Made by a program: the position numbers and the translations under genes. Below, one piece after another: positions 7,290 through 35,048 of a stretch of 38,643 nucleotides of DNA. Numbering within the stretch: the first letter of the stretch is position 1; each line of letters starts with the position of its first letter. This stretch comes from an uncultured Lentisphaerota bacterium. GTDB taxonomy: Bacteria > Verrucomicrobiota > Lentisphaeria > Oligosphaerales > CAITYL01. The stretch is from contig CAITYL010000338.1 of assembly GCA_903896595.1 (NCBI GenBank), forward strand, positions 1-38,643, read 5' to 3'. Below the pieces are notes generated by a model. It was given only the letters and a program-made list of their open reading frames with translations. It had not been told where the DNA came from and ran no database searches.

Positions 7290-8621
7290 ATGACCGAACA
7301 GCAGCAGGCCCGTGCCCTGGCCATCCAGGCGCTGGATTTTTCCATTCCCACGGTGGGTGAGCCGACCCTGCCGTCGCCGGTGGCGGCCGGCTATCAGATC
7401 CCGGACGACCGGCGGATCAGTTATTTTCACGATTTGGAAACGCTGGCGTTTCTGGGCGGGCGCGGGCCGCTGCCGGCGTTCGAGGCGGCCGGGCCGCGGG
7501 GCCGGCTGTTTCATGACCCGGCCTGGACCCGGGTGGGCATTGTCACCTGCGGCGGGCTCTGCCCCGGCATCAATCATGTCATCAAGGCGCTGGTCGAAAC
7601 GCTGTATTTCGTCTATGGCGTGGAAAATGTCTTCGGCATCCGCTACGGTTACCGCGGTCTGGCGCCCCAGTTCAAGTTGGAGCCCATGGGGCTGGATCCC
7701 GAGGTGGTGGACACCATCCACGAGAGTGGGGGCTCGATCCTGGGCTCGTCCCGCGGTCCCCAAGATCCGGGCGAGATGCTGCGCACTCTGGACCGGCTGA
7801 ATCTGAGCATCCTCTTCACCATTGGCGGTGACGGCACCCAGCGCGGTGCCTTGGCACTCGCCAACGCCGCCCGGGAACGGCGGCTGCCAATCAGCATCAT
7901 CGGGGTGCCCAAGACGGTTGACAATGACCTGGATTTTACCGACATCACCTTCGGTTTCCAAACCGCCGTGCATGCCGCCGCCCCGATCATCGCCTGTGCC
8001 CATGACGAGGCCAAGGGCGCCTACAACGGCATCAGCATTGTGCGCCTGATGGGACGGGACTCCGGGTTTATTGCCGCCTTTGCCTGCCTGGCCAACCCGG
8101 TGGTCAACCTGTGCCTGGTTCCGGAATCGCCGTTCACCCTGGAAGGCCCCGGCGGGCTCCTCAACTGGCTGGAACGCCGTTTGGAGAAAAAGCATCACGT
8201 GGTGATCGTGGTGGCGGAGGGGGCCGGTCAAAACCTGTTTGCCGAGCAACCGGACGTCAAGGACGCCTCCGGCAATGTGCTGCACCGGGACATCGGCACC
8301 TTCCTGCGCGACCGCATCCATGAGCATTTGGCGACGAAGAAGGTGGAGCACGCCATCCGCTATTTCGACCCTAGCTACCAGATCCGGGCCGTGCCCGCCG
8401 AGGGCACCGACGCCGTCTTTTGCGGCCACCTGGCGGAGAATGCCGTGCATGCCGCCATGGCCGGCAAGACCGGCATGGTGGTGGGGCACTGGAACGGCCA
8501 GTTCACCCACGTGCCGATCCAATTGGCGGTGCAGGAACGCCGCAAGATCAATCTGGATGGCCAGCTCTGGCGCAACCTCCTCAACGTCACCCGCCAAGAA
8601 GCCTATCTGGCCGCGACCTGA
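7290..8621 (+). CDS. pfkA: 6-phosphofructokinase. Its GGDGT plus PKTVDND combination leaves ATP versus PPi dependence undetermined.
   Basis: Motifs GGDGT, PKTVDNDL and MGR; RBS aaggag. Confidence 0.9.
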   Translation: MTEQQQARALAIQALDFSIPTVGEPTLPSPVAAGYQIPDDRRISYFHDLETLAFLGGRGPLPAFEAAGPRGRLFHDPAWTRVGIVTCGGLCPGINHVIKALVETLYFVYGVENVFGIRYGYRGLAPQFKLEPMGLDPEVVDTIHESGGSILGSSRGPQDPGEMLRTLDRLNLSILFTIGGDGTQRGALALANAARERRLPISIIGVPKTVDNDLDFTDITFGFQTAVHAAAPIIACAHDEAKGAYNGISIVRLMGRDSGFIAAFACLANPVVNLCLVPESPFTLEGPGGLLNWLERRLEKKHHVVIVVAEGAGQNLFAEQPDVKDASGNVLHRDIGTFLRDRIHEHLATKKVEHAIRYFDPSYQIRAVPAEGTDAVFCGHLAENAVHAAMAGKTGMVVGHWNGQFTHVPIQLAVQERRKINLDGQLWRNLLNVTRQEAYLAAT

Positions 8622-8645
8622 CGGCCGCCCCAAGGGGGGGGCTTT

Positions 8646-8688
8646 CGATTGCAATCGACTGCGGCCGGTTGCAGTCGATTGCGGTCGG
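8646..8688. repeat. REP-like GC hairpin element between convergent pfk and PFOR genes; probably also a terminator.
   Basis: cgattgcaatcgactgcggccggttgcagtcgattgcggtcgg. It shares gcaatcgac / gattgcagtcg modules with 28860-28900. Confidence 0.4.
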
Positions 8689-8797
8689 TGGGACCCGATC
8701 ATCTTCGGGCTGGCACCACAAAAAAACGCGGCCCGGCGCGCCTGGGAGGCGGGCCGGGCCGGCATGAGGCGGGAACGATGGGCGTTCCTGCTGTGAC

Positions 8798-12331
<3,534 letters not shown>

Positions 12332-12797
12332 GATCCAGGCTCCTTGTGGGGGATGGGTAATGAGGGAAAAGGTGGGTTGTGAATTTTTTAACGGATCAGA
12401 TTAACATATAGCGTGGCGCCCGTTTTTCAACCGCGAAACCGCGGTCCACGCGGGCCGCGCTGGAACCTCAGACATCCTGACCTGATATGAATTGGGCTTG
12501 GCACCATCCGACCCCATTCGAGTGGGATGATCGAGCGCGAGCGCGAGCGCGAAAAAACCAAAACCAATCGGCACTTCGCGCTCAGCGTAGCGGCGCTCGC
12601 GCGTCGCCGTCGAATCCGTCACCTTTCCCCAAGCCTGTAAAGAACCCATGGAACCCGATAGCCCAACAAATACCCATACGGTCACCAAACCGCTGAACTG
12701 GTATCGTACGTCTCTGGGTCAATAAGTTCCCCGCCGCTTGGAATGGGGGGTCGGAAAACCTAATCGGCTCCCACCAGCGCATTCATTCCTAAAACCA

Positions 12798-12836
12798 AAC
12801 CGCTTGGAAATTTTCTACATTTCCAGCGGTTTTATG
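12798..12836. terminator. Hairpin with a U-tract at the left island border.
   Basis: aaccgcttggaaat-tttctac-atttccagcggtt followed by ttttatgg. Confidence 0.35.
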
Positions 12837-12885
12837 GCTTGTGCAACGGGTTTTGGCGCACTATTTTTCATGCTTCACATGAAAT

Positions 12886-12931
12886 ACTGACAGGAATTTT
12901 GATTTCAGGGATTGGGTCGGGCGGGGGAAAT
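12886..12931 (+). repeat. Island repeat family D, copy R1.
   Basis: actgacaggAATTTTGATTTCAGGGATTGGGTCGGGCGGGGGaaat. The same ~50-nt core recurs at 13706, 22380 and 23229, all on the same strand. Confidence 0.6.
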
Positions 12932-12982
12932 TTGGCTGATCGCTTTCGTGCAAGCTACACAAGTGAATTTGAGAATTGTTGA

Positions 12983-13615
12983 ATGATAAAAAGTTTGCAT
13001 CAAAATACCACAAGGGAAAAAATGAAAAAATTAAAGACACCCAAACTCCCAGAATCGATAACGGAACTGAACGAGACGCAGGCTAAGTGTCTGTCTTATC
13101 TCTATGATGAGTCAGATCGTGGTTGCGTGCTTGTTGCGAGTGGACTCATCGATGTGGCACTTGAGAGTTTATTCAAAGTTAAGTTGTTCCCAACGAAACT
13201 TAGCCAAGACAATGAGAACGCCATATTCAGCCCCATGGGTCCCTTGGGTGCGTTTTCGGCAAGAATCAAATTGGCCTATGCTCTGGGTTATGTCACCAAG
13301 ATTATCCATGACGATCTGAATTTGATACGTGCGCTTCGGAACTATTGCGCCCACAGTTACGTTGGGCCAGATTTTGATGATAACGAGTTTGCTCTGAAAG
13401 TTTCAGCCATTCAGACTGGAAAAACGATCTACAACTCCGTTATCGCTCAATTTCCATGCACCGAGAATTCAGCGTCTGACAGCTTGAATGACGTTGATGG
13501 AAGAGAGTTCTTGCCATCACGATTTCAATTCATGATATGCGCAGCCGAGATCGCGCACCAGATATTAGATCTTATACGCACGTCGGCTACTGAACACAAT
13601 GTTCAGCCGACATGA
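12983..13615 (+). CDS. HEPN-like protein (Rx4H motif; MtlR/DUF4145/Abi-like branch). The start may instead be the internal ATG at 13022.
   Basis: LIRALRNYCAHSYVG carries the R-x4-H HEPN signature. The gene is AT-rich (island composition); agggaaaaa RBS before 13022. Confidence 0.5.
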   Translation: MIKSLHQNTTREKMKKLKTPKLPESITELNETQAKCLSYLYDESDRGCVLVASGLIDVALESLFKVKLFPTKLSQDNENAIFSPMGPLGAFSARIKLAYALGYVTKIIHDDLNLIRALRNYCAHSYVGPDFDDNEFALKVSAIQTGKTIYNSVIAQFPCTENSASDSLNDVDGREFLPSRFQFMICAAEIAHQILDLIRTSATEHNVQPT

Positions 13616-13705
13616 CATAAGAACCTGATTTCCATGCCGACATTTTCTTGCAAAGGTCTTCAGGCGAACGGGGCGATGGCGGTGGGGCGGATTGATACGC
13701 CGGGG

Positions 13706-13756
13706 ACTGATAGAAATTTTAATTTCCTGGATTGGGTCGGGCGGGGGGAATAAACG
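13706..13756 (+). repeat. Island repeat family D, copy R2.
   Basis: actgatagaAATTTTAATTTCCTGGATTGGGTCGGGCGGGGGGAATAAACG. Confidence 0.6.
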
Positions 13757-13782
13757 CAAATCATGCTATCACATTGGTATGG

Positions 13783-14157
13783 CTAGTCTTCCAGAATTCC
13801 CACTCGGACAACGGCTTCACCAAGAATAAGCATCAATTCCAAATCAGGGGGTTGTTCGTATTCCGTTTCACTCAGTTTGGCCCGTGGTACTCGAAGATAT
13901 TTTCCCTCAGATCGACCAGTCACATACTGGCCAACATAAGTTTTGGAAGCGGCAAATTTTTGGCACCTTTTCCCCTTCATTTTAGTGCAGCTTAACGCTT
14001 CAGGGATTTTTATACAGCCATAGTTTTCGGGATGGCACGTAAAAATATCCAATTCTTCTTTGTCCAAGTAACGCCACCAGCATTCGTTTTCTGGGGTGTT
14101 AATTGAGAATTGTTTGTCCGTTGGTAGTGTTTTTCTTTTTACTGATAATGCTGACAT
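13783..14157 (-). CDS. Hypothetical Cys/Trp-rich small protein.
   Basis: 124-aa ORF, AT-rich, no recognisable motif. Confidence 0.45.
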   Translation of the reverse strand: MSALSVKRKTLPTDKQFSINTPENECWWRYLDKEELDIFTCHPENYGCIKIPEALSCTKMKGKRCQKFAASKTYVGQYVTGRSEGKYLRVPRAKLSETEYEQPPDLELMLILGEAVVRVGILED

Positions 14158-14803
14158 ATATATCCCTGTCGTTAGCCAAATGAAAGGGCTCAGTTTTGAG
14201 CCATCTCAGTTGGCACAGTTTTGGGCCATGAGGGTGCCCATTTGATGCTTCGCGTTTTGCTTCTCCCGACTTCATAACAAAAATCGGATTCTTCTGTTTT
14301 CTTGCTTATCTTCTTCCCCTCTTCACCGGTCATGGAGTTGCCAGTTTTGCACAAAACCGATCCAATACAGCTTGCTTAAATCGCATGCGAAGCCTGCCAT
14401 GGAGTGCGTTGAGGATCACCACCATGGTTTTGGGCGCTGGAAGCGCCCCTCCTGGACGGAAAACACGGTCAGGACAACGAAAGGCGGCTCCGCCGCCAAC
14501 CAAGGCGGCATTCCATGCCGCACTCCAAGGCGCGTATCATCCCATAAAAACGGTCAAAAATTTCACCCCAATGGCTGGGCACTCGAATGGCTAAAACGGT
14601 GCCAATCCCATGGCTCAAATCTGAGACTTTTGAGAGGATCGCCACACCCCAACGGTGGGAAATCTAGCGCTATCCCCACAAATCCCCCATAATGCCCCAG
14701 TATTCCCGCACTCCTCATTTAAAGCCGCTTTAGCTATCACAATACACCCTTATCCCTACGCCCTCGCATTTGGTTCCTAAAAGACAAGTTTGATACAAAT
14801 TGT

Positions 14804-15448
14804 TTACAACCCCCATTCGCGAAGAGGTATACTCGTGCCGTTTGGTTTATCCGGGCCAGGCTGATCCGGGTACCGTGCGTTTTGGCCCTCAGACCACATC
14901 ACCCGCAAGAAATCGTGATCGTACTCATCGAGATACTGCCCCCGCGCCCAGTTGTGGAGACGGTCGATGAGTGTTTTTGCAGCGGTCGTGTCGCCACCTC
15001 CGGTGCCTTTCCACTTGAGTATCTCAATGGTGGCGTGCGTCATTGCCTCAGCCATTACTTTTATTCGGGGACCAAAGACGAGGTCGGGTCCCGTTTCTCG
15101 CCCGAATATGTGCATGATCCCTGGATAACCACCATCGCAAGAATAGAAGACAAACGTACAGGCATTCGGTAGTTTTCCTCTAAGGAGGTGCGCAAGATCA
15201 TGCCAACGCACAGGGTTTTCCCATACATTGAACCCCATTAACGAACCGTGACCATGCCCACCGACAATAAGCACATTTAGGGACGTCTTGTCGAGAGCCA
15301 GTAAATGTGTTTTTAACTCATCCGGTGTCGTCACCTCATGCACGGTTAGATTCTGATTATTTTGGTCGCCCCATAAATTCAATTCCCGCCGTAAAGGTAG
15401 TTCTGCGGCATCGTTGGGAGGAAAACAACTCACATAATGAATTTTCAT
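14804..15448 (-). CDS. Small caspase-like (clan CD fold) cysteine peptidase candidate; last gene of the six-gene operon.
   Basis: A hydrophobic strand then His-Gly (NVLIVGGHGHG, His65/His67) and a second hydrophobic strand then Cys (TFVFYSCDGG, Cys104). The His-Cys spacing of about 38 aa is as in caspases and legumains. Strong RBS aggaga; 18 nt after the upstream gene. Confidence 0.45.
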   Translation of the reverse strand: MKIHYVSCFPPNDAAELPLRRELNLWGDQNNQNLTVHEVTTPDELKTHLLALDKTSLNVLIVGGHGHGSLMGFNVWENPVRWHDLAHLLRGKLPNACTFVFYSCDGGYPGIMHIFGRETGPDLVFGPRIKVMAEAMTHATIEILKWKGTGGGDTTAAKTLIDRLHNWARGQYLDEYDHDFLRVMWSEGQNARYPDQPGPDKPNGTSIPLREWGL

Positions 15449-15466
15449 GGCATCTCCTAATCTGGA

Positions 15467-16753
15467 TTATTGAGGCACAAGTTCACCATCCTTGAATTGG
15501 CCAACTTCCGTCGTTCCGTCCGGTGACGTCACTGTCACTTGGCCGTTGAGCTTGTCATCCTTCCATTCGCCGGCGCATTTCGTCCCGTCCGGTAACGTCC
15601 TTATTCCTTGACCATTGGCCATGCCGTGTTTGAATTCACCACCGTGTTTGGTTCCGTCCGATAACGTCAAGGTTCCGTGTCCATGCATCTTACCCTCCTT
15701 CCATTCACCGACGTACCCCATCCCGTTAGGAAGCGTCGTAGTTCCCTGGCCATTCCTCATGCCGTCCTTCCATTCACCGACGTATTTCTGCCCGTCCGAA
15801 AAAATGATCGTTCCCTGGCCATGCATCGTGCCATCCTTCCATTCACCAACGTACTCCTCTCCGTCAGGAAGCGTCGTTTTTCCCTGGCCATTCCTCATGC
15901 CGTCCTTCCATTCACCGACATACTTCGTTCCGTTCGGGAACGTCATGGTTCCCTGGCCATTGGGCTTGTAATCCTTCCATTCACCGACGTACACCTTCCC
16001 ATCAGAAAGTGTCATCGTTCCTTGGCCATTTTTCATCATATCCTTCCGCACACCGACAAAAAATTTTGACCAATTATGAATTGTGCCCAATAACATCAAA
16101 ACGCAAATGACAACAGTACAAAACCTAAGAATCCAGTTCCATTTCTTAAGTGTCCCATCCGTATTCGTCTTCTTGGTGTACACATTTCCCGTGATAACTA
16201 TAATGGAGGGGAATATCATGGCAAGAAATGCTAATGGCATTCCTACAAGCTGAAACGGGAAGTCGCCGGAATAAAAAAGGGCGGGGATACAAGGGAACAA
16301 TACCCAAAAAATAAAGCACAACAGTGCAAAGACATTGTGGGATTCAGCTCGTCGGCTCCATGGAACCTCATTATAATTGTAGTAGTTATTTTTACCGGAT
16401 ACTGGCACCGCACCACTTTGAAGCTTCTGGCCAGAAAGAAAGTTCCGCCCGCACATGGTACACAACACGGCGTCCGACTTGGCTGCGGCACCGCAAGACG
16501 GGCAGGTCTTTGTGCCACCGGACGCTACAGACGGATGGGACACGCCCGTGATCTTGAACTTGGGCTTAATCGCCTCTGGCGGCTTTTCCGGAACCAAGTT
16601 TTCAATATTGCGAGCGGCGGTCCATTCCGTCAGATCTTCTGTCCAGACCAGTGTGTCGGCGTTTAGCCCGTCGGTTTCAAGCAGGTGAACCAATTCATCT
16701 TCGCTAATCGGCCCCTGTTTCTCACCACCTTTTTCATAGTACCATGTCCGCAT
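15467..16753 (-). CDS. DUF4339 + zinc-ribbon + multi-TM + C-terminal MORN-repeat protein.
   Basis: N-terminus MRTWYYEKGGEKQGPISEDELVHL (DUF4339-like), CPSCGAAAKSDAVLCTMCGRNF zinc ribbon, 3-4 hydrophobic helices, then at least 7 MORN repeats (YVGEWKDGxxxGxGT). RBS gaaggga. Confidence 0.8.
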   Translation of the reverse strand: MRTWYYEKGGEKQGPISEDELVHLLETDGLNADTLVWTEDLTEWTAARNIENLVPEKPPEAIKPKFKITGVSHPSVASGGTKTCPSCGAAAKSDAVLCTMCGRNFLSGQKLQSGAVPVSGKNNYYNYNEVPWSRRAESHNVFALLCFIFWVLFPCIPALFYSGDFPFQLVGMPLAFLAMIFPSIIVITGNVYTKKTNTDGTLKKWNWILRFCTVVICVLMLLGTIHNWSKFFVGVRKDMMKNGQGTMTLSDGKVYVGEWKDYKPNGQGTMTFPNGTKYVGEWKDGMRNGQGKTTLPDGEEYVGEWKDGTMHGQGTIIFSDGQKYVGEWKDGMRNGQGTTTLPNGMGYVGEWKEGKMHGHGTLTLSDGTKHGGEFKHGMANGQGIRTLPDGTKCAGEWKDDKLNGQVTVTSPDGTTEVGQFKDGELVPQ

Positions 16754-16790
16754 ATTAGTTCCCTTCCATCAAACACCGTTGTTTTCATCA
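16545..16790. repeat. Copy 1 of an ~250-bp near-identical segmental duplication (5' ends of two DUF4339 paralogs plus their leaders).
   Basis: More than 90% identical to 17425-17674 over the gene start, RBS and about 40 nt of leader. Confidence 0.7.
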
Positions 16791-16847
16791 TAAACGCATC
16801 AAGTTTACGCTTCGCATGTCGTATGCAATAAAGGCACATGCAGTTGT

Positions 16848-17636
16848 CTACATCGTTTTTTTCTTCTCTTTCTTCCAAACATTCATCAGGACATTAAGGA
16901 ATGTCTCGCCCTGGTTAAGAGGCGCGATCTCTATCTTAATTGTTTTGCCGGCGATCGAGGTTATTTCGATGACATCTCCCGTTAGCATTCCGTTGCGGTG
17001 ACGGATGTTCTCGATATCGGAGATATTGATGGAGTCATTATTACCGTCCTTATGGTAGATGATACGTTTTGTCGACAGAATCGCGGCTTCTGTTCCATTG
17101 AGCGACACTGTCACGTCGTAATAGGCGAGAATATCCTCGGAATTATCAAGAATCTTGTTATCCATAATGTACTTAGTAGCATATGATTCCATGCTGTTTG
17201 GAAGTTGGACTCCGCTTTCGGGATATTCGGGGCCGAAAAATAGCCACACCACCCCGACGACTACGGCAATCGTCAAGATCAATATCAGCGTTCCACATCC
17301 TACTAATAGAAATTTTAATTTCAGGCGCCGGATTTGGAGGGGGGACGAAATAGCATCCGATTTAACCTCAGCATCGCAGGATGGGCAAATATTTGTGTTA
17401 GCAACAACCGCCGACGGAGGGGGCACGTCTGGAATCTTGAACTGGGGCGTTATCTTCTGTGGCGGCTTTTCCGGAACCAAATTTTCAATATTGCGAGCGG
17501 CGGTCCATTCCGTCAGCTCTTCTGTCCAGACCAGTGTGTCGGCGTTTAGCCCGTCGATTTCAAACATGTGAACCAATTCATCTTCGCTAACCGGCCCCTG
17601 TTTCTCACCACCTTTTTCATAGTACCATGTCCGCAT
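16848..17636 (-). CDS. DUF4339 + zinc-ribbon + TM protein, a paralog of 15467-16753 without MORN repeats.
   Basis: The first ~55 aa are near-identical to the neighbouring gene; CPSCDAEVKSD; one TM helix; the C-terminal domain is unassigned. Confidence 0.8.
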   Translation of the reverse strand: MRTWYYEKGGEKQGPVSEDELVHMFEIDGLNADTLVWTEELTEWTAARNIENLVPEKPPQKITPQFKIPDVPPPSAVVANTNICPSCDAEVKSDAISSPLQIRRLKLKFLLVGCGTLILILTIAVVVGVVWLFFGPEYPESGVQLPNSMESYATKYIMDNKILDNSEDILAYYDVTVSLNGTEAAILSTKRIIYHKDGNNDSINISDIENIRHRNGMLTGDVIEITSIAGKTIKIEIAPLNQGETFLNVLMNVWKKEKKKTM

Positions 17637-17674
17637 ATTAGTTCCCTATTCATCAAACGCCGTTGTTTTCATGA
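17425..17674. repeat. Copy 2 of the ~250-bp duplication.
   Basis: See copy 1. Confidence 0.7.
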
Positions 17675-17681
17675 ACTGGTT

Positions 17682-20480
17682 TCATTGTTTTTCTCCGACG
17701 TACTTGTCATTCCTCCATATCCCGTCCTTACTTTCAGAGCCATCAGCGGCGATTATCTTTCCACGGCCATGAAATTTGTCGTCTTGAAATTCTCCAACGT
17801 ATTTTTTCTTTCCATCCCACGATGTCAACGTCCCATTCCCATTAAATTGGCCATTTCTAAATTCACCAACATACATCTTTCCATCCGGAAACATCTTTTC
17901 TCCCAGGCCACTGAAATTGCCGTCCTCGAACTTGCCGACATATTTCTGTCCGTCCGGTGACGTCATCGTTCCTTGGCCATTTGGCAAACCATTTTTAAAC
18001 TCGCCAACGACTTTTATTCCGTTGGGGAAACTCAATGTTCCTTGGCCATTGAGTTTGTTATCCTTGAATTCACCAACGCATTTTGTTCCATCTACTAATG
18101 TTTTTGTCGCTTGGCCACAGCAGATGCTGTCTTTGAATTCCCCAATGTACGTCGTTCCTTCCCGCGTGGTCAATGTTCCTTGACCATTAACTAATCCGTT
18201 TTTAAATTGACCAACGTATTTATCTCCTTCGGGCGTAATCAATGTTCCTTGACTAGACCGTCCGTCCTTAAATTCACCAATGTATTTTCTTCCATCTTTA
18301 AAAGTGAATGTTCCATGGCCATTCATTTTGCCGTTTTTCCATTTTCCGACGTATATTCCGTCGTCCTGATAAATCATTGCTTTGATCTCATTAAACTTGG
18401 CCAAGGCAGCCGCATAAGCGTTCTTGCCTTCCTGGTACCGGGAGGAATGGCTGACGCACTCCTCGCCGAGCTGTTTTTGTGACTCCACTTCCGCCCATTT
18501 TTCGCCCCCCCCCTGGCTGAACGTCACAAGATCTGCCTCTTTCAATACGCTCTCAAACGCCTGCCGCGCTTTCCAATACTCCAAAAACTTGGCCGCCGGT
18601 TCCCATTTCGGTGCCAGTGTTATCGAGATACGTGCAACCTCCTCATAGTTTTTTGTACTCAAAGCGTTCCGATAGTCCGATTTCTGTTTCATCCGAATGC
18701 CGAGACTGCATCCGCCCCAGATCACAAGAATACCAACTCCCGCCCATGCACAGCGCTTGAAGGTCAGATACGACATCAGTGATATTGTGGGTTTAGCGTC
18801 CATGGGACTAGTCCCAGCGCTGTTATGTGGCACAGCCACCATGGTTCCAGTAAAACCGAGGAGCACTTTAGCCGTCCGATCTGCAAAATTATCCCATTTA
18901 CCCAGTAGCTCGATATTATCGTTCAGCTTATTCTGGTCGGCAGCCTCCTTTATGCTTTTACGTATTTCCTCAATGGTTGTGGTGGGATAAAGGGCTTCAA
19001 GCGCCTGCCGCACCGGTACGGGGGCGTTTAGCCAAAGTCGTGACAGGAACGCAAGACGATTATAGATAAATGATTTCCATGGGATTCCATCCGGAGACAA
19101 CCAACCTACAGTAATTACAACAATCAAAACCCCAAGCCATGAAAAAATGAACGTTAGTATTCTACTGCCGGCCAAAAATTGCTGGGTATCGTCTCCAAAT
19201 AACGCACAAAATGGGGCAAATATCGTACGAAGAAGGAAGTTAATTTCAGCACCTTCACCGTTTAAATAATAACCAATCGATAAAAAAAGTGCGATGACTG
19301 CATATGCGAACCAGATCCAAAAGTATATTCCATTAAGGGTATCAATTTGTTTTTGTTTCTGCCAGGCTAGCGCAGCTTCATTGGCTACAGCCGACACATC
19401 CAAAGGAAAATCCCCGGAGATGTTGCCATTCTGCAGATTTACAAAATGACGGAAATCGGAACCTTCCACGGCGTATCTCACAACGGCAAATGGAAGATAT
19501 ATCAGCGTGAAAGAACGAGACTGTAACTGTGGACTTACATGCCTGAGCCGACACACACAAGGCTCGCTTGCTTTTCGCGCCATGTCATCCAAAATCGATT
19601 GCGACCAAATTTTTTTCTGGGAGATCGAAGGCGATGTAATAGAGAAGCCTGTATCAGTACGGGGGGGATCACTGGGGTTAGCCTCGGCATCAAACCCGTC
19701 CTTTACCACTTTGACTTGCACATCTGAGAGGCCGTGCGCCGCAGGAAATCCGACGGTCTCGTCGAAACATGCCTGTCCTGAACTCGGCGTCCAAACAGTC
19801 CTGGTTTTTTGAACCGGCTCGTTTGTCTCATAGCTGCGCCCATCCACATTTTTGGTGACTTTTTGCCATTCAGTGTAGGTCTCTTCGTGAGGATTATCTC
19901 CTGTCCATGCGCAAGTCCCCTTAACGCAAATCTTCCAGAAGGGAAAAAAAACGCCTTTTATGTCCATCGCCAACGCATCGGTGTTCTTTAGCCCACATTC
20001 GTCCTTTTGGATGGTATCGATTATCCGATTCCGGACATCCTGAAGCGATAAGGCCGGTTCGATGTAGCCAATGTCCAGTGTCGGCCCGTTGAGATCCAGG
20101 AGCGATGCGTCACGCGTCTTGGGTGTATGCACCATGCTCTTGCTGCCACAGAAAAGGCAACTGGCGATTTCTTCATCACGACGCAAATCCAATTGCGCAC
20201 CGCAGCTTTTACACGCAGCCACTTCCAGAACTGACGAAGGCGGAGCAGCGGGGGATTTAGGTGCCCCCATGAAGACTTGTGATTTGGGTAATGGCGGTGG
20301 TTGCGCTGTGCGCGCGGACGGTTTTGGCAAGGGCGGTGGTTGCGGGGGCGCATGCGGTTTTACGCTTGGAACAACAATGGGTTGCTGACAGGAAGGACAC
20401 TCAACGGTCGTCCCCCTGTCGGAGTCATCGACTTGCAGGTTTTGCCCACAGTGAGCGCAAAAGAATTTTAAATTTCCCAT
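17682..20480 (-). CDS. Large (932 aa) protein with double zinc ribbons, a Pro-rich segment, multi-TM region and C-terminal MORN repeats.
   Basis: CAHCGQNL...CPSCQQ and CKSCGAQL...CLFCGS ribbons, a PPQPPPLPKP linker, hydrophobic helices at about 400-470, and about 10 MORN repeats at the C-terminus. RBS ggggga. Confidence 0.8.
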   Translation of the reverse strand: MGNLKFFCAHCGQNLQVDDSDRGTTVECPSCQQPIVVPSVKPHAPPQPPPLPKPSARTAQPPPLPKSQVFMGAPKSPAAPPSSVLEVAACKSCGAQLDLRRDEEIASCLFCGSKSMVHTPKTRDASLLDLNGPTLDIGYIEPALSLQDVRNRIIDTIQKDECGLKNTDALAMDIKGVFFPFWKICVKGTCAWTGDNPHEETYTEWQKVTKNVDGRSYETNEPVQKTRTVWTPSSGQACFDETVGFPAAHGLSDVQVKVVKDGFDAEANPSDPPRTDTGFSITSPSISQKKIWSQSILDDMARKASEPCVCRLRHVSPQLQSRSFTLIYLPFAVVRYAVEGSDFRHFVNLQNGNISGDFPLDVSAVANEAALAWQKQKQIDTLNGIYFWIWFAYAVIALFLSIGYYLNGEGAEINFLLRTIFAPFCALFGDDTQQFLAGSRILTFIFSWLGVLIVVITVGWLSPDGIPWKSFIYNRLAFLSRLWLNAPVPVRQALEALYPTTTIEEIRKSIKEAADQNKLNDNIELLGKWDNFADRTAKVLLGFTGTMVAVPHNSAGTSPMDAKPTISLMSYLTFKRCAWAGVGILVIWGGCSLGIRMKQKSDYRNALSTKNYEEVARISITLAPKWEPAAKFLEYWKARQAFESVLKEADLVTFSQGGGEKWAEVESQKQLGEECVSHSSRYQEGKNAYAAALAKFNEIKAMIYQDDGIYVGKWKNGKMNGHGTFTFKDGRKYIGEFKDGRSSQGTLITPEGDKYVGQFKNGLVNGQGTLTTREGTTYIGEFKDSICCGQATKTLVDGTKCVGEFKDNKLNGQGTLSFPNGIKVVGEFKNGLPNGQGTMTSPDGQKYVGKFEDGNFSGLGEKMFPDGKMYVGEFRNGQFNGNGTLTSWDGKKKYVGEFQDDKFHGRGKIIAADGSESKDGIWRNDKYVGEKQ

Positions 20481-20510
20481 TCGGATATCCCCCTACGTCT
20501 TTTGTCGAAT

Positions 20511-20981
20511 TCAGCCCTTGCCGGGGTCGGTTTTTTCGGCATGCAGCACGCTGAACCCAAGAAGCAGCGCAGTGATGGCGCATCCGACGAAAAGGACGAT
20601 TTGGAGCACGAGATGAATCCGCTCCGGGAACCAGTGGTTCGGCAGGACGCTATCCAGCAGGAGCAGGATCACGCTCACCGCACAGTAGCCACAGACGCCG
20701 AGGGCGACACCGGGGACCAGGCGGGCCAGGCCCCAGCGGTCGTGCGTGACCGCAATCGCGCGCAGCCAGAACCCCTGGGCGCCCCAGAAGAACAGGGACA
20801 GGCACAACAACCAAAACATTTTGCCCCAGAAGAGACCAGTTCTCTCACCAGCAGCGGTCAACAACAGCGGAACCAGAATCGCGACCACGGCGGTCAGCAG
20901 GAACCCGGCCACGCACACCACCAGGCTGTAGCGTAACGCCGGTGCGGAACCGCTCGGACAGGTGGGCCGGTTAGATTCCAT
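20511..20981 (-). CDS. 4-TM membrane protein (NfeD/YqiJ-like partner position).
   Basis: Four hydrophobic helices; its start overlaps the SPFH gene stop by 11 nt. Confidence 0.7.
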   Translation of the reverse strand: MESNRPTCPSGSAPALRYSLVVCVAGFLLTAVVAILVPLLLTAAGERTGLFWGKMFWLLCLSLFFWGAQGFWLRAIAVTHDRWGLARLVPGVALGVCGYCAVSVILLLLDSVLPNHWFPERIHLVLQIVLFVGCAITALLLGFSVLHAEKTDPGKG

Positions 20982-21990
20982 TGAGAATCTCCTTCTTCTT
21001 GGCCTCGAATTCCTCTGGCGTGATCAACTGTGCCCCAAGCATGCGCTTGAGGGTGCCCAGCCGCGCCACGGGGTCGGCGGGCACCCCGCTGGTATCGTCG
21101 AGCGAAACATGGAGCGCCTCACCAACCTGTTTCCCCAACGGCACGCCGGCGCCGACGCCGATGCCGAGTCCGAGCCCACCGGCCAGCAAGCCGCCGGCGC
21201 TGCCGCCTTCGTTGGCCGCCGCCTTTTCCAAGGTGTCGAACGTGCGCATGGTGGTATAGGCGACGCCGACCTTGGCCTTGCTGATCTGATCGATCTCCAT
21301 GCGGCGGCCCAGCACATCCTGAAACCGCGTCATCTCCGCCTCGGGAATGCTGATCCGTTCCACGTTGAAGTTGATCACTTCAATGCCGAACCGGGCCAGT
21401 TCCGGGGCGATCTGCTTTGCCGTTTCGGCCGAAATTTCATTGAGGCGGGAGTTGATCTGAAATACGGAAATCTTCTGTTCGGCGAAAAAAGTCGCCAACA
21501 GGTCGGAAAACTTCTGGTGTATCTCCCCGGTGAAGTACTCCATGACCTTCGTGCTATCCGCGCCCGCAAGCGTTCCAACGATCTGAGCCACAAAAACCTG
21601 GGAGTCTTGAATCCGCAATCCCCAGCGACCATAGGCTCGCACGGAGATGGGAAAGTTGTATTCCGGGTCAATCAGGGGGATCGGGGTTTTGGTGCCCCAC
21701 TTGAGGTCGCGCTTGACCGTCTTGCTCACAAACCAGACTTCAGCCGTAAACGGGGTTTGGTTGCCAAACGGCAGGCTCACCAGCTTCCCGAGCAAGGGGA
21801 GATTGCCGGTGGAAAGCGTGTGTGTCCCGTTCGTGAAGAGGTCGAGGGCCTGACCGCCCTTGACGAAAATCACCTCCTGGGTGGGATGCACGATGAGTTG
21901 ACCACCAAGCTTTAAATCCTCGCTTGGATACTTCCAAACAAGTACCTCGTCGGATGGTGAGTCAAACTTGATTCTGTCGAGGAGAGCCAT
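20971..21990 (-). CDS. SPFH (band 7/flotillin-like) domain protein with C-terminal SHOCT domain.
   Basis: SPFH core plus C-terminal LGTLKRMLGAQLITPEEFEAKKKEIL (SHOCT-like). First gene of the operon. Confidence 0.8.
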   Translation of the reverse strand: MALLDRIKFDSPSDEVLVWKYPSEDLKLGGQLIVHPTQEVIFVKGGQALDLFTNGTHTLSTGNLPLLGKLVSLPFGNQTPFTAEVWFVSKTVKRDLKWGTKTPIPLIDPEYNFPISVRAYGRWGLRIQDSQVFVAQIVGTLAGADSTKVMEYFTGEIHQKFSDLLATFFAEQKISVFQINSRLNEISAETAKQIAPELARFGIEVINFNVERISIPEAEMTRFQDVLGRRMEIDQISKAKVGVAYTTMRTFDTLEKAAANEGGSAGGLLAGGLGLGIGVGAGVPLGKQVGEALHVSLDDTSGVPADPVARLGTLKRMLGAQLITPEEFEAKKKEILNGI

Positions 21991-22170
21991 AAGCGTGGGC
22001 TTTCTTGTCTATCGATTGGCAAAAGGAGAGCGTGCGATATCTTTGCCGTCCTTGAAGCCGACATCGTTCGTCCCGCCCCGATTTTCACGATCAGCTGTCG
22101 TACAGTACACGGGAGTGCCAAGGTCTGCAAGGCGCATAATGCGACAGCGGCTCCGGTTGCGGAGTCCACG

Positions 22171-22199
22171 CCTTTTTTGCGCCGCGGCGCAAAAAAAGG
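22171..22199. terminator. Bidirectional intrinsic terminator upstream of the SPFH operon.
   Basis: ccTTTTTTgcgccgcggcgcAAAAAAAgg: a perfect GC palindrome flanked by T6 and A7. Confidence 0.5.
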
Positions 22200-22379
22200 A
22201 GGGCGCGAACCCCAAGTTTGCGCCTCCACGGAAGGGCTAGCACACCCCGGAATGGAAACAACAAACGAGGGGAACGCGCCCAAGTGAGCGCGTCCCCTCG
22301 CAAGTCGCCGCTTCCATTCCATTGAAAAGTGCTAGTTTTCCGTGGAAACGTTGAATTGCGATGAACGCAAACCTATGAT

Positions 22380-22430
22380 ACTGATAAGAATTTTTATTTC
22401 ATGGATTGGGTCGGGCAGGGGTAATAAACG
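22380..22430 (+). repeat. Island repeat family D, copy R3.
   Basis: actgataagAATTTTTATTTCATGGATTGGGTCGGGCAGGGGTAATAAACG. Confidence 0.6.
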
Positions 22431-22521
22431 TATCGATTCTAGTCCCCAAAATATTCATAATCAATCCATGTTTTTCTTCTTCTTCGCCGTCATCCTTTTT
22501 GTTGTGATCCGTCATACTGAC

Positions 22522-23187
22522 CTAACTCAAACCGAAACACCGCAAGGCGTGTTCAGTCAATCCTCGCTGCCAATCGATATCTGAGCGGGAGACTGCGATC
22601 TCCGTGATCCTGATCCAATCGGGGCTACCGTAGTGCGCTTTAAGGCCGGGTATTCCGATCAGTGGCTTCAGAAAGTCAGTTGTATCGGCATCTTTGTCAA
22701 GCGATGTCCCGCCAAAGACCCTGGAAAACGACTTTAATAACATTTCGTACTGGCAATCCAACGGTGCATGTCCGTCGCCGTCCAACATAAGCAAGCACAG
22801 TCCAACAAACGTGGGATCATGATTCGCGTTATAAAGGTATGTCTCTACTTTGCGTGCAACCCGCATGGTCGTCTCATTCTTTCCGCACACATCCACTATA
22901 TATTTCTGCCCTTGATATTCCACCGCAACATCGGGGTGACTCCAATGCAAGTCGTCCGCACTGATGCAGGTCATTCTGGAGAAAAGGCCACGGGTGGGCA
23001 CGAGTGCCGCAAGAGCTAATTCTGGGGTGCGGGAAAAACTGAAAGACGATTCAAAGCCATGTTTCGTTCCCAGAGCGGCATGAATCGTTACGCCCTTGGC
23101 TGGAAGCGCGGCTCGCAACGCCAGTGCTACGCGAAGCACGCACTGATGATGAGTCATGGGATCGTTAGCCGTTTTGTGCTGATTCAA
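22522..23187 (-). CDS. Hypothetical protein (221 aa) forming its own cassette between repeat copies R3 and R4.
   Basis: ORF with island-like composition and no secure motif (weak PD...E.K-like stretch PDVAVEYQGQKYIVDVCGK). Confidence 0.5.
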   Translation of the reverse strand: MNQHKTANDPMTHHQCVLRVALALRAALPAKGVTIHAALGTKHGFESSFSFSRTPELALAALVPTRGLFSRMTCISADDLHWSHPDVAVEYQGQKYIVDVCGKNETTMRVARKVETYLYNANHDPTFVGLCLLMLDGDGHAPLDCQYEMLLKSFSRVFGGTSLDKDADTTDFLKPLIGIPGLKAHYGSPDWIRITEIAVSRSDIDWQRGLTEHALRCFGLS

Positions 23188-23228
23188 AATAACGCCTGTT
23201 TGTCGATCTTGATCGTTGAACCACTACG

Positions 23229-23280
23229 TCTGATAGGCATTTTGATTTCAGGGATTGGGTCGGGCGGGGGGAATAAAAAT
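23229..23280 (+). repeat. Island repeat family D, copy R4.
   Basis: tctgataggcATTTTGATTTCAGGGATTGGGTCGGGCGGGGGGAATAAAAAT. Confidence 0.6.
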
Positions 23281-23342
23281 TTATAGGTAATTTGAATTTT
23301 AATGCTTATTGGATTGTTCCGGTGGTGGAACCCGTAAAGAAA

Positions 23343-23588
23343 CTATCTGATAATTTTTAGTCTGCGGAAATCCTCTTCTCCCCATCCAATATCAACAAAT
23401 AGTGCCTTTAGCAATTTTGGCCCGTAGGTTTTTCCAGGGTGGAAGTGAACACTCACGCGCCGTCCGGATTTATAAAATAACTGCTGGGAACCGCCTCGTT
23501 GCTCACAAACCCAGCCATCACGGACAAGAGCCCGGATTAATTCATCCGCGCTTATGCTTTTGAGTTGGTCCCAAACATTTTTATTCAT
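23343..23588 (-). CDS. hicA: HicA-family mRNA-interferase toxin.
   Basis: 81 aa; LIRALVRDGWVCEQRGGSQQLF...VSVHFHPGKTYGPKLLKALFVDIGW fits the HicA/YcfA fold pattern; ATGA overlap with hicB. Confidence 0.75.
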   Translation of the reverse strand: MNKNVWDQLKSISADELIRALVRDGWVCEQRGGSQQLFYKSGRRVSVHFHPGKTYGPKLLKALFVDIGWGEEDFRRLKIIR

Positions 23589-23920
23589 GCAAAAGCAGGG
23601 ACTTGAACATCTTCGGTAATGTAACGGATACGGTTTTTGGGTACATCATAGAAAACGTCCCGGCTTAAAACCGTACAACAGGGGATCGGTTCCCCATGCT
23701 CCATCATAGACAAGACATAAAGATTAATCGCATCACGGGCGTCCACCATGGCATCCTTGATGGTATCCCCGCAGGCATGCAACCCTTTAAAAACCGGGCA
23801 AAAAGCATGGTAACCATCACCATCTTTTTCAATGATAACCGGGACCGAGACGCGAAACATAATTTTATTTTTTTTCATATAACTGATACGGACTTTAGCA
23901 TGTCGGAATCCAGATGGCAA
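23585..23920 (-). CDS. hicB: HicB-family antitoxin. The start may be the internal ATG giving MKKNKIMF at about 23878.
   Basis: VIIEKDGDGYHAFCPVFKGLHACGDTIKDAMVDARDAINLYVLSMMEHGEPIP matches the HicB N-domain pattern; the stop overlaps the hicA start. Confidence 0.7.
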   Translation of the reverse strand: MPSGFRHAKVRISYMKKNKIMFRVSVPVIIEKDGDGYHAFCPVFKGLHACGDTIKDAMVDARDAINLYVLSMMEHGEPIPCCTVLSRDVFYDVPKNRIRYITEDVQVPAFA

Positions 23921-24069
23921 GTCCGCTAATCGTAGTCGTGCGGCCCGGCAGGGTTGTGGCGGGGGGTGGCTGGCGTTATGTTGACCCAGCGCAAGCGAAG
24001 CGGTAATCTGATCCTGCCGCTCGCCTCTGTCTGAACACGGTCATCCGCTTCCGGGTCTCGGATAACGCC

Positions 24070-25167
24070 ATGACGGAAACTCCAATCATCCGCCTCGAAG
24101 GTCGTTTGGACACCCGGACGGTGCCGGCGGCTTGGCTTGGGGCCATGGCGGTGTTGCGGCGGCATTCCGCCGTTCCGGTCGTGGTGGACGCCGCCGCTGT
24201 CGATTATTGCGACGGTGCCGGCGTGGCATTGTTGTTGCGCCTGTTGAGCCATCGCCGCCCGGCCGGCGCCACCGTCACCCTGCGGGGGCTTTCCCCCAAA
24301 TACCAGGCGTTGCTTGCCCAGTTCAAGGTGGACGACTACCGGGGGGTGGATGAGCTGGCCGGCGGCGTGAAAGCGGAGTCGTTGCCGAACCGGGTCGGCC
24401 GCATCACCCATGCCATGTGGCGTGATCTGCGGGAGATGGTGGAATTTACCGGTGAGTGCCTGGCCGCCTGCGCCCGCGTGGTGGTCCGGCCGACCCGCGT
24501 CCGCTGGGGCGATGTCCTGTCCATCGCCGAAGAGGCCGGGGTCAACGCCGTACCAATCGTGGTGTTGCTGAGCTGGTTGCTGGGGGTGATCCTGGCGTTC
24601 CAATCGGCCATTCCCATGAAAATGTTTGGCGCCGAGTTATATGTCGCCAATCTGCTGGGCATGGCGGTGTTGCGCGAATTGGGGCCGATTATGACCGCTA
24701 TCATCTTTTCCGGGCGCACCGGCGCCGCGTTCGCCGCCGAGATCGGCACCATGAAGGTCAACGAGGAAATCAACGCGCTGGAGACCATGGGGTTGGACCC
24801 GGTGCGGTTTCTGGTGGTGCCGCGCCTGTTGGCGGCGGTGGCGGTCATGCCCCTGCTGGCCATCATTTCCGACCTGGTTTGTCTGGCTGGCGGGGCGATG
24901 GTGATGTCGGCCATGAACGTGCCGGTGACCACCTATGTCAACCAGATCGTCGGCTTCGTGCATCCCCAGGATTTCGTGGGCGGCATCGCCAAGTCGGTGG
25001 TCTTCGGATTGTTGATCGCGGGGACCGGCTGCCTGCGCGGGTTGCAGACAAAAAGCGGGGCGAGCGCGGTGGGGCAGTCCACCACCCGCGCCGTGGTCAC
25101 CAGCATTACCCTGATCGTCATTGCCGACGGCCTGTTCGCGGTGCTCTCCTACCAGCTTGGTTTGTAA
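24070..25167 (+). CDS. mlaE: MlaE-family ABC permease with N-terminal STAS (MlaB-like) domain fusion.
   Basis: The N-terminal ~100 aa are STAS-like (IIRLEGRLDTRTV...VDYCDGAGVALLL); the C-terminal MlaE/YrbE permease core has 5 TM helices. Confidence 0.85.
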   Translation: MTETPIIRLEGRLDTRTVPAAWLGAMAVLRRHSAVPVVVDAAAVDYCDGAGVALLLRLLSHRRPAGATVTLRGLSPKYQALLAQFKVDDYRGVDELAGGVKAESLPNRVGRITHAMWRDLREMVEFTGECLAACARVVVRPTRVRWGDVLSIAEEAGVNAVPIVVLLSWLLGVILAFQSAIPMKMFGAELYVANLLGMAVLRELGPIMTAIIFSGRTGAAFAAEIGTMKVNEEINALETMGLDPVRFLVVPRLLAAVAVMPLLAIISDLVCLAGGAMVMSAMNVPVTTYVNQIVGFVHPQDFVGGIAKSVVFGLLIAGTGCLRGLQTKSGASAVGQSTTRAVVTSITLIVIADGLFAVLSYQLGL

Positions 25168-30446: not shown

Positions 30447-31175
30447 TCAGCTCCGCCGGCGGCGCAGGACGCACAGGCCGCCGAGGGCCAGCAGGGCGAG
30501 GCTGGCCGGCTCGGGGACCAGTGAGATGTTCATGTCCAAGCCCCAGGCTGCGCCAGCGTTGGTCCGGAAAATCTGCTGGTCCAGAAACCAGGAGTTCAGA
30601 TTCGAGTTGTACAGTTCCGCCATCAGCATAAAGCTGTTCGTGCCGGCGACGTACGTGGTCAGGTTGTTGATCGTACCACCATCGGTTACACTTGGGCCGC
30701 TCGGTGTGGTTTGGATCAAGTCGTATTGCGTCCCTGAACTGCCATTGTTGGTGGAGACGGACCACGCGACGGTCCCTACGCCGCCCGCCGCCGCCGCTAG
30801 TGACGCGTTGACGACCGTCGCCGTCGCGATCGGCGCGGTGTTGAAGTCAAACTCCCAAACCAATGTTGCGCGAGTCCCTGCGGCCCGACTGATATAGAGC
30901 GTTCCGTTGCCTTCGTTTATCTTCAGCCAATTAGCGGAAGTCGGCGACAAGCCCGCCTCAATGGTTGATTTCCAGGCGGTTGTCGTGTTGGTGTTGAGAT
31001 AATAAGCGTCGGCAGCCCTCTCGTAACGGATGCGGACGTCCGTGCCGTTGGCATCTTGGTTCCACTGGACATCGCCGGAGTTGATGGTGACGGTGGCGGC
31101 TTGGGCGAGGCCGGTGGTCAGGACGGCCAATGCCGCCAGCTTGCCGAGCCCGTTGAGTTGTGCTGTGCGTTGCAT
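30447..31175 (-). CDS. Secreted PEP-CTERM-anchored protein.
   Basis: Signal peptide MQRTAQLNGLGKLAALAVLTTGLAQA; C-terminal VPEPASLALLALGGLCVLRRRRS; RBS ggag. Confidence 0.75.
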   Translation of the reverse strand: MQRTAQLNGLGKLAALAVLTTGLAQAATVTINSGDVQWNQDANGTDVRIRYERAADAYYLNTNTTTAWKSTIEAGLSPTSANWLKINEGNGTLYISRAAGTRATLVWEFDFNTAPIATATVVNASLAAAAGGVGTVAWSVSTNNGSSGTQYDLIQTTPSGPSVTDGGTINNLTTYVAGTNSFMLMAELYNSNLNSWFLDQQIFRTNAGAAWGLDMNISLVPEPASLALLALGGLCVLRRRRS

Positions 31176-31253
31176 GGTCGATTCTCCTTGGGTTTTTATC
31201 TCCACACCTGACGGACCATCCGCCAGGGCATGAACGGGGATCAGGGGTTGGAA

Positions 31254-34292: not shown

Positions 34293-34403
34293 CAGCCCGG
34301 CGGCTGACGCCGCCCCATGAAATTCCTGGCCACCGGTGGCCCATGCCGGATCAGAATAACCACACGCCCCCCGCAAGCGACAAGAAACCCAAGGAGAAAG
34401 CCA

Positions 34404-35048
34404 ATGAACACGCTGACCAAGATGATGTCCGTGGCCGCTTTAACCCTGACCGCCGCCACCGGCTGGGGCGCCGTGACCCAGTACAACGAACCGCTGCCCG
34501 CCGGCATGATGCCGTACCGCACGTTTTTGGACGGGTATGTGGCGACGGCGGTCTCAGGATCGACCGGCGCGATTGCCTGGGCCGCCAACACCAATGCGTA
34601 CGGCCATACCGTTCAGAACATCAACATGAATCCGGGCTGGAAGAGCACGCGAACCTGGGTAAATGGCTCCGCCATACAATGGAGCAATGTGAACTTCACC
34701 TCGACCGGCACGCAGGAGGTGTGGATGTCCTGGATCTTCTTTGCGGACAAAGCAAATCAGACCGTCACCTACACGCTCAGCGCCGGGCCGAACGCCGCCA
34801 GCCTGACCACGCGCGGCACCTACAACCTGACGACCGCCAGCTATAACACCGGCATGTATTGGACCAAGATCGGCAGCAACTGGAACTTCAATACCACGGA
34901 CACGGTGGTGCGCCTGACCTTGACCACTCCCACGGATTATCTGTTTTATGTTCAGGGCGTGGACGAACTGGTGTTCGCGGTGCCCGAACCGGCCTCCCTG
35001 TGCCTGCTGGCGCTGGGCGGGCTGGCACTGCTGCGCCGGCGGCGGTAA
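34404..35048 (+). CDS. Secreted PEP-CTERM-anchored protein, paralogous in architecture to 30447-31175.
   Basis: Signal peptide MNTLTKMMSVAALTLTAATGWGAV; C-terminal VPEPASLCLLALGGLALLRRRR; RBS aaggag. Confidence 0.75.
   Translation: MNTLTKMMSVAALTLTAATGWGAVTQYNEPLPAGMMPYRTFLDGYVATAVSGSTGAIAWAANTNAYGHTVQNINMNPGWKSTRTWVNGSAIQWSNVNFTSTGTQEVWMSWIFFADKANQTVTYTLSAGPNAASLTTRGTYNLTTASYNTGMYWTKIGSNWNFNTTDTVVRLTLTTPTDYLFYVQGVDELVFAVPEPASLCLLALGGLALLRRRR

Follow-up and report, generated by a model that had tools for sequence, protein, structure and literature searches.

The window analysed here spans 38,643 nt of contig CAITYL010000338.1 (positions 1 to 38,643) from an uncultured Lentisphaerota bacterium (assembly GCA_903896595.1), and the subject of the analysis is a run of six genes, G1 to G6, on its reverse strand (Table 1). 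An earlier note on this DNA had taken the six genes for one undescribed membrane system with a role in conflict or stress. The layout on which that proposal was built was recovered in full, with open reading frames (ORFs) at 14804-21990 that share one strand and are closely spaced (an 11-nt overlap between G1 and G2 and then gaps of 30, 45, 94, and 18 nt through to G6). Transmembrane (TM) segments were counted by using a hydropathy scan, which returned four in G2 (as the note had read it), three strong and one weak in G3, one in G4, three in G5, and none in G6.

G1 is an SPFH protein by its match to Pfam Band_7_1 (PF13421, E 6e-49). The SHOCT tail previously seen in it was also found, at 25.4 bits (E 1e-5) and so just below the 27-bit cut-off. 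The Band_7_1 domain is followed by a Gly-rich hydrophobic segment (aa 265-285) and the SHOCT-like tail (aa 310-336), and the protein is predicted to be cytoplasmic or membrane-peripheral, like YdjI of Bacillus subtilis, to which it is 22% identical (BLASTP, E 2e-18). G2 matched no family in Pfam or in the further family searches and nothing among plasmids, and it shows no similarity to YdjH.

The earlier note had described G3 as a protein of zinc ribbon, TM helices, and MORN repeats, and had missed a YdjG-type globular domain that follows the ribbons. The complete order is zinc ribbon 1, a proline-rich linker, zinc ribbon 2, the globular domain, TM segments, a helical region, and the MORN array. 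Pfam zinc-ribbon matches were located at residues 6-35 and 88-114, the two Cys4 sets being C8/C11/C28/C31 and C90/C93/C108/C111, and the globular domain stops just before TM1 (residues 384-402 by hydropathy). The linker peptide reads PPQPPPLPKPSARTAQPPPLPK. The published architecture of YdjG combines two zinc ribbons with an NTF2-like domain and a TM segment (PMC11237479).

A HMMER search with G3 residues 86-392 retrieved 144 cluster representatives, many of them 300-400 aa in length. The reference YdjG, whose identity was verified by exact look-up (YDJG_BACSU, 'PspA localization factor'), matched dozens of these representatives at E-values of 1e-30 to 1e-53. The G3 subfamily was aligned to the YdjG subfamily using hhalign over 322 columns, with a probability of 100% (E 4.4e-67). 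Plain BLASTP of G3 against YdjG was insufficient, given that only the ribbon aligns, and profile comparison was required. By that comparison, the N-terminal module of G3 belongs to the YdjG family.

Neighbourhood conservation was found for G1, G2, and G3 only. In locus L010, a Band_7_1/SHOCT gene, a 158-aa gene, and the G3 homologue P0028 follow one another in the order of G1-G2-G3, with identities of 71% to G1, 34% to G2 (E 2e-24), and 34-40% to G3. In a second locus, known from its gene table, a partial 153-aa gene of G2 size lies upstream of the G3 homologue P0027. Both loci carry unrelated genes, and no GYF genes, downstream of the G3 homologue. G2 is a conserved partner within this triad. 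Additionally, an SPFH gene adjoins a YdjG-like gene in Bacillus (L017), in Paracoccus (L021), in L010, and in L011/L012, and SPFH, hypothetical, and zinc-ribbon genes lie in a row on a Bacteroides 'plasmid'. The order in the Bacillus locus is pspA, ydjG (Zn_Ribbon_TF), ydjH (TPM_phosphatase), and ydjI (Band_7_1 with a zinc ribbon), YdjI being itself a PF13421 protein. The word 'undescribed' therefore does not hold for the core of the locus, since G1-G3 represent a variant form of the SPFH module of YdjG/YdjI type, which has been tied to the phage-shock response.

The C-terminal part of G3 varies among its relatives. As far as residue 706, where the MORN array of G3 starts, P0027 and G3 are colinear (54% identity), and P0027 then continues in Sel1 repeats; elsewhere in the long subfamily the C-terminus consists of Sel1, WXXGXW, SH3_3, or coiled coil. 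As judged from these alignments, the repeat array of G3 is a swappable module. Close relatives of the non-MORN part of G3 are few, and P0027 is without both the insert that bears PPPLPK and the weak fourth hydrophobic segment. The two long MORN arrays of the earlier note were found in G3 and G5 (Pfam E 2e-41 and 2e-48), and both are visible as 69-nt periodic repeats in the DNA. Given a cytoplasmic N-terminus and three strong TM segments, the array of G3 would tentatively lie outside the cytoplasm.

In B. subtilis, YdjG and YdjH are required to bring the soluble YdjI, and via YdjI also PspA, to the membrane (PMC8581546). By analogy, G1 would assemble into a scaffold at the membrane's inner face, where we infer it to be held by the YdjG-like anchor G3 together with the four-TM G2. 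G3 would be an anchor extended by additional TM helices and an exchangeable C-terminal array (MORN here; Sel1, SH3, or WXXGXW in relatives), and this array, probably extracytoplasmic, would serve as the ligand- or envelope-binding sensor part. The first unit of the locus would thus be a YdjI/YdjG SPFH membrane module variant with no PspA homologue detected in the window: tblastn of B. subtilis PspA against its 38.6 kb gave no match at E <= 10. PspA_IM30 was likewise absent from the gene tables of neighbouring contigs; a divergent or distant copy elsewhere in the genome is possible. With YdjH as the query, tblastn of the window returned nothing significant, and no TPM-domain gene was found there.

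G4 and G5 both match Pfam GYF_2 (E 3e-15 in each), formerly named DUF4339, so that the two DUF4339 N-domains noted earlier are present. The statement that G3, G4, and G5 all open with a Cys4 ribbon followed by TM helices held for G3, which has two ribbons, but not for G4 and G5, which open with GYF_2. In G5, which also matches Zn_ribbon_3 and MORN, the GYF_2 domain is followed by a true Cys4 ribbon (C84/C87/C98/C101), three TM segments, and eight MORN repeats (about nt 15494-16036). In G4 only half a ribbon (CPSC) is left, and it is followed by repeat-derived juxtamembrane sequence, one TM segment, and a beta-rich C-terminal domain. This last domain may be PH-like; matches to bPH_4 and Vps36 were sub-threshold only, and the AlphaFold2 (AF2) single-sequence model, which predicts a beta-rich domain, was poor (predicted local distance difference test, pLDDT, of 49).

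Between about -20 and +176 the DNA of G4 and G5 is 97% identical; identity then falls to about 65% as far as +285, and past that point the two are unrelated. The resemblance ends exactly at a degenerate copy of a repeat that recurs in the surrounding island (17302-17352), and this copy supplies codons 96-112 of G4 in place of the second CxxC. On this comparison G4 is a chimera, one that would have arisen through recombination at the repeat copy. The sole outside homologue found for the N-terminal half of G5 was P0197 (47% identity), which belongs to a tandem array of paralogues (L022) with a near-identical ribbon module and differing C-termini. Three consecutive (GYF)-zinc ribbon-TM paralogues occupy L022 1-2624, the first two sharing the ribbon segment and differing in their C-terminal domains; this 'shared head, swapped tail' pattern is that of G4 and G5, which are a lineage-specific pair of adaptor-type GYF_2-ribbon-TM paralogues.

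In the typical bacterial layout an N-terminal GYF domain, often beside a zinc ribbon, precedes a membrane module; GYF followed by a ribbon is reported for the Planctomycetes-Verrucomicrobia-Chlamydiae (PVC) group, and in GltJ the GYF domain has a proline-rich sequence of AglZ as its binding partner (PMC11135422). A weak match to GltJ was found in NCBIfam. The G3 profile used in locus scans was narrowed, the first alignment being too diverse, and the narrower profile found only two Phragmitibacter loci in genome contigs (L018 and L019; Table 1) and one short locus in metagenome contigs. In the YdjG-like proteins of Phragmitibacter (Verrucomicrobiota), GYF_2 replaces the first zinc ribbon. Among the neighbours at L018 are a resolvase and a DSP-PTPase phosphatase of polymorphic-toxin type. 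Taken together, the PPPLPK linker of G3, absent in P0027, and the GYF-YdjG fusion in Phragmitibacter suggest that G4 and G5 dock on G3 through their GYF domains, probably on that linker by analogy with GltJ and AglZ. Such docking would add external domains (the MORN array of G5 and the possibly PH-like domain of G4) to the G1-G3 complex.

Alternatively, G4 and G5 could be independent membrane receptors of the GYF type that are mere cargo of the island, G4 perhaps being a decaying recombination product. Consistent with this, the P0197 array shows no SPFH or YdjG gene, the other triad loci are without GYF genes, G4 has lost half its ribbon, and the widest gap of the run (94 nt) precedes G5. The absence of the triad beside P0197 is, however, uninformative because the L022 contig is only 2.6 kb long. 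The direct fusion of GYF_2 to a YdjG-like module in Phragmitibacter, the proline-rich insert that distinguishes G3 from its closest homologue, and the intact frame of G4, with its TM segment and predicted beta-rich domain, all argue for a link to the triad. We consider independence of G4 and G5 unlikely, if still worth keeping in view.

G6 had been read as a small caspase-like peptidase, and at the level of the predicted fold this was upheld, together with the His65/Cys104 pair. No match was found for G6 in Pfam (even at E <= 10), NCBIfam, PADLOC, or PHROGs; its sequence belongs to neither Peptidase_C14 nor CHAT, and no caspase turned up when PDB sequences were searched with a profile. Among 5.8 billion protein clusters, a family of 25 sequences including G6 was retrieved, the 24 relatives all being at least 43% identical to G6 and none having a Pfam domain. 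In an alignment of 20 sequences, H65, G66, H67, S69, S103, C104, G106, G107, and Y108 are invariant. The structural model has a caspase-haemoglobinase fold in which His65-Gly66 and Cys104 come after strands E57-63 and E98-102, and its best structural match was SAVED-CHAT. G6 is accordingly put forward as a candidate stand-alone cysteine protease of the caspase/CHAT-like (clan CD) fold.

Homologues of G6 were read in five other contexts with DNA (L005-L007, L008, L009, L013-L015, and L016), and strong PADLOC matches to defence genes lie within a few kb in three of the five. At L005-L007 the homologue is beside a BREX locus (BrxHI, E 0; PglZ, E 3.5e-261), at L008, from Sorangium, it is two genes from a PD-T7-1-like gene with an integrase and toxin-antitoxin genes nearby, and at L013-L015 it follows a Ppl-like ATPase. 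The homologue at L009 is beside PIN and ParE toxin-antitoxin pairs, and a gene near that at L016 weakly matches a PADLOC caspase model (E 2.8e-11). At L008 8118-10648, the G6 homologue begins 43 nt after a 175-aa gene that itself follows a PD-T7-1/PD-T7-5-like gene (E 1.5e-80); this stretch may be a small defence operon.

In order to compare neighbours, all ORFs within 5 kb on either side were aligned all-against-all across the six contexts, and only the G6 homologue was common to them; a tblastn search of G1-G5 against all fetched loci placed none of them beside a G6 homologue. Given that neither comparison revealed a shared neighbour, G6 is taken as a solitary gene of variable, defence-rich regions. 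G6 had no match among plasmids, and its family had none in viral contigs. The best-supported reading is that G6 is an independently mobile mini-caspase of a family associated with defence islands. It would most likely have been inserted or captured beside G5, and it probably acts on substrates of its own and not as an obligate partner.

The six genes lie in an island with a GC content of 0.45-0.51, compared with about 0.63 in the flanks. The AT-richer island of the earlier note is therefore real, but G1 and G2 are not AT-rich: GC content at third codon positions (GC3) is 0.75-0.79 in G1-G2, 0.49-0.57 in G3-G6, and 0.84-0.92 in flanking core genes. A sharp compositional break falls at the G2/G3 boundary (20481-20510), where GC3 drops from 0.75-0.79 to 0.49. 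Set against the uniform GC3 of the L010 triad (0.54-0.57), this break suggests that G3 and everything downstream were replaced by recombination.

The six genes are bounded, as had been reported, by a bidirectional-terminator-like hairpin and by copies of a repeat of about 50 bp. Four good copies were found against 0.00 expected by chance, all in one orientation, and they split the island into four segments that hold, in turn, the MtlR/DUF4145 gene, the 124-aa ORF with the six genes, an orphan 221-aa gene, and hicAB. The HEPN-like MtlR gene fills a repeat-bounded segment of its own. The repeat was absent from viral contigs and was found only in loci of the same genome. An integron attC reading of the repeat was rejected, as it folds no better than shuffled sequence (z-scores -0.1 to 1.5) and forms no attC-like hairpin; neither the called genes nor the larger ORFs scanned in the window included an integrase. 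Promoter and terminator scans gave counts not above shuffled expectation, and Rfam gave no match in 12300-24200. The two orphan ORFs (221 and 124 aa) had no match in Pfam, NCBIfam, PADLOC, or PHROGs. Downstream of G6, about 650 nt (14158-14803) hold no credible gene and include a locally GC-rich patch. Elsewhere in the window are a DDE transposase at the edge (167-1747, reverse strand), two PEP-CTERM proteins (30447-31205, reverse, and 34317-35048, forward), and a DUF1559 (SBP_bac_10) protein (35161-35826, forward). With the order of GYF before ribbon, these genes may point to a PVC-group host.

Table 1. Genes and features of the six-gene locus and its island (window coordinates unless a locus is named)
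Feature	Position	Strand	Detail or basis
G1	20971-21990	-	339 aa
G2	20511-20981	-	156 aa
G3	17682-20480	-	932 aa
G4	16848-17636	-	262 aa
G5	15467-16753	-	428 aa
G6	14804-15448	-	214 aa
G3 residues 1-370, YdjG-family module	19371-20480	-	profile-profile comparison
G3 residues 41-85, proline-rich linker	20226-20360	-	PPPLPK twice; sequence
G3 residues 706-932, ~9-10 MORN repeats	17685-18365	-	Pfam MORN; 69-nt periodicity
G6 His65-Gly66	15251-15256	-	
G6 Cys104	15137-15139	-	
Phragmitibacter YdjG-like genes, L018	7740-9884, 10149-12326		
Phragmitibacter YdjG-like gene, L019	about 7815-8884		
Island direct repeat, 47-51 nt	12886-12936, 13706-13756, 22380-22430, 23229-23279	+	four good copies
Degenerate fifth repeat copy in G4	17302-17352	+	71% identical to reference copy, 17-nt exact core
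Perfect palindromic hairpin, bidirectional-terminator-like	22171-22199		upstream of G1; GC stem, A6/T7 flanks; sequence
Second terminator-like hairpin	22270-22297		terminator scan
HEPN-like gene, 210 aa	12983-13615	+	MtlR E 4e-7, weak DUF4145, phrog_22031 E 1e-13
Orphan ORF, 124 aa	13783-14157	-	
Orphan ORF, 221 aa	22522-23187	-	
hicA/hicB toxin-antitoxin pair	23343-23920	-	last repeat-bounded segment; adjoins core mlaE-type ABC transporter genes

Our reading, to which we assign a probability of about 0.6, is that the locus is a mosaic of three units (G1-G3, G4-G5, and G6) packed on one strand in a low-GC, cassette-like island. Several points weigh against it or against its parts. Gaps of only 18-94 nt, with no convincing terminator from G3 through to G6, suggest co-transcription, and G4-G6 could on that account be functionally wired to the triad here despite their non-conservation. 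The sample is small, as the triad was available at two further loci and a G5-like gene at one, and the contigs are mostly short. With no pspA found in the window and no TPM-domain YdjH gene, the Bacillus mechanism may not transfer, and the YdjG-like genes of Phragmitibacter (L018, L019) have no SPFH gene within 8 kb. The topology of G3 and G5 rests on a simple hydropathy count, and positive charges after the last TM segment of both argue weakly for the opposite orientation. The docking of GYF domains on the linker rests on analogy and one correlation.

The rival in line with the earlier note is that all six genes are one new conflict or abortive-infection system, in which the SPFH/YdjG-like complex and the receptors with MORN and GYF domains would sense envelope damage or phage attack and switch on G6 as effector or signal processor. 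It draws on the shared strand and tight spacing, on the company of HicAB and the HEPN-like MtlR/DUF4145 gene in the low-GC island, and on G6 itself, with its relatives in defence islands and its SAVED-CHAT likeness. Proteases of the CHAT and caspase-like kinds are established effectors in defence. The proposal is unsupported by the conservation pattern because only the triad recurs (G4-G6 being missing both from L010 and from the contig of P0027) and because G6 homologues, in all five other contexts, never neighbour SPFH, YdjG-like, GYF, or MORN genes. The single-system claim thus fails the check that the earlier note had itself set. Searches of G1-G6 against PADLOC-DB 2.0 models gave no significant match, only weak ones over short stretches or zinc ribbons, the best being G4 to BnzA at a sub-significant E 1.7e-4 over 80 residues, and the composition and repeat junction show recent assembly. 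We regard a single six-gene system as improbable. About equally improbable is a further version, in which the G6 family is a new single-gene defence-island protease that is here wired to a YdjG/SPFH surveillance complex and released or activated by envelope perturbation sensed through the MORN receptors; if true, the locus would be a newly assembled, envelope-triggered conflict system of six genes. SPFH proteins are classically paired with proteases (stomatin/NfeD, HflKC/FtsH), and both G6 and the tail of G1 are predicted to be cytoplasmic, but a pair of this kind, with G6 processing G1 (for example its Gly-rich or SHOCT tail), is very improbable, as G6 lies four genes from G1 and never beside an SPFH gene elsewhere, and the L010 orthologue of G1 has no such protease nearby.

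A conflict or stress role is plausible but unproven, and plausible chiefly because relatives of G6 sit in defence islands. That genes are packed tightly on one strand of a genomic island is no proof of a functional system.

The island resembles integron cassette arrays in its short, same-orientation repeats between low-GC segments of one or a few genes, including a toxin-antitoxin pair, but it differs in that the repeats are non-hairpin elements of about 47 nt, no integrase was found among the genes scanned, and the genes lie in both orientations. In having an N-terminal GYF_2 beside a ribbon and then a membrane module, G5 (and in part G4) resembles GltJ of Myxococcus and other bacterial GYF-ribbon-TM proteins, whereas gliding-motility genes are absent here and the C-terminal parts consist of MORN repeats or a small beta-rich domain. 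A concrete candidate ligand for a bacterial GYF domain is offered by the PPPLPK linker of G3.

With the CHAT/caspase-like clan CD proteases (SAVED-CHAT of CBASS, TPR-CHAT of type III-E CRISPR, and metacaspases), G6 shares a predicted fold and the placement of His-Gly and Cys at the ends of adjacent strands. It is set apart by its size of only 214 aa, with no sensor, TPR, SAVED, or p10-like extension, and by having neither a sequence-level match nor a conserved partner gene. The minimal caspase-like proteins of this small, unannotated family are candidates for screens of phage defence and raise the question of how small a working caspase fold can be.

Band-7 proteins with two TM segments and SHOCT occur in polyamine operons related to the phage-shock protein (PSP) response (Ravi et al. 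2024, PMC11237479). G1 is similar to these in its SPFH domain, hydrophobic segment, and SHOCT tail, and in Ralstonia a homologue with 26% identity across 99% of G1 is set in a DUF350/DUF4178/SpeD context that fits the description in that paper; the window differs in having no polyamine genes and a YdjG-like partner.

In gene content, the locus resembles the Bacillus pspA-ydjG-ydjH-ydjI operon. Each encodes a Band_7_1 SPFH protein that lacks a classical TM anchor (YdjI and G1), a protein with two N-terminal ribbons, a globular domain, and a TM segment (YdjG and the N-terminal module of G3), and adjacent, same-strand genes for the two. In the window, however, no pspA is detectable, the unrelated four-TM G2 takes the place of the TPM-domain YdjH, and the SPFH gene comes first, in reverse of the Bacillus order. 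The tail of YdjI is a zinc ribbon, whereas that of G1 is Gly-rich with SHOCT, and G3 is about 590 residues longer than YdjG, with extra TM segments and the MORN array. To our knowledge, the YdjG/YdjI-type SPFH module is known almost solely from Bacillus, where it serves PspA. A form with no adjacent pspA whose anchor carries interchangeable repeats, and sometimes GYF, suggests that SPFH scaffolds can couple to modular receptors.

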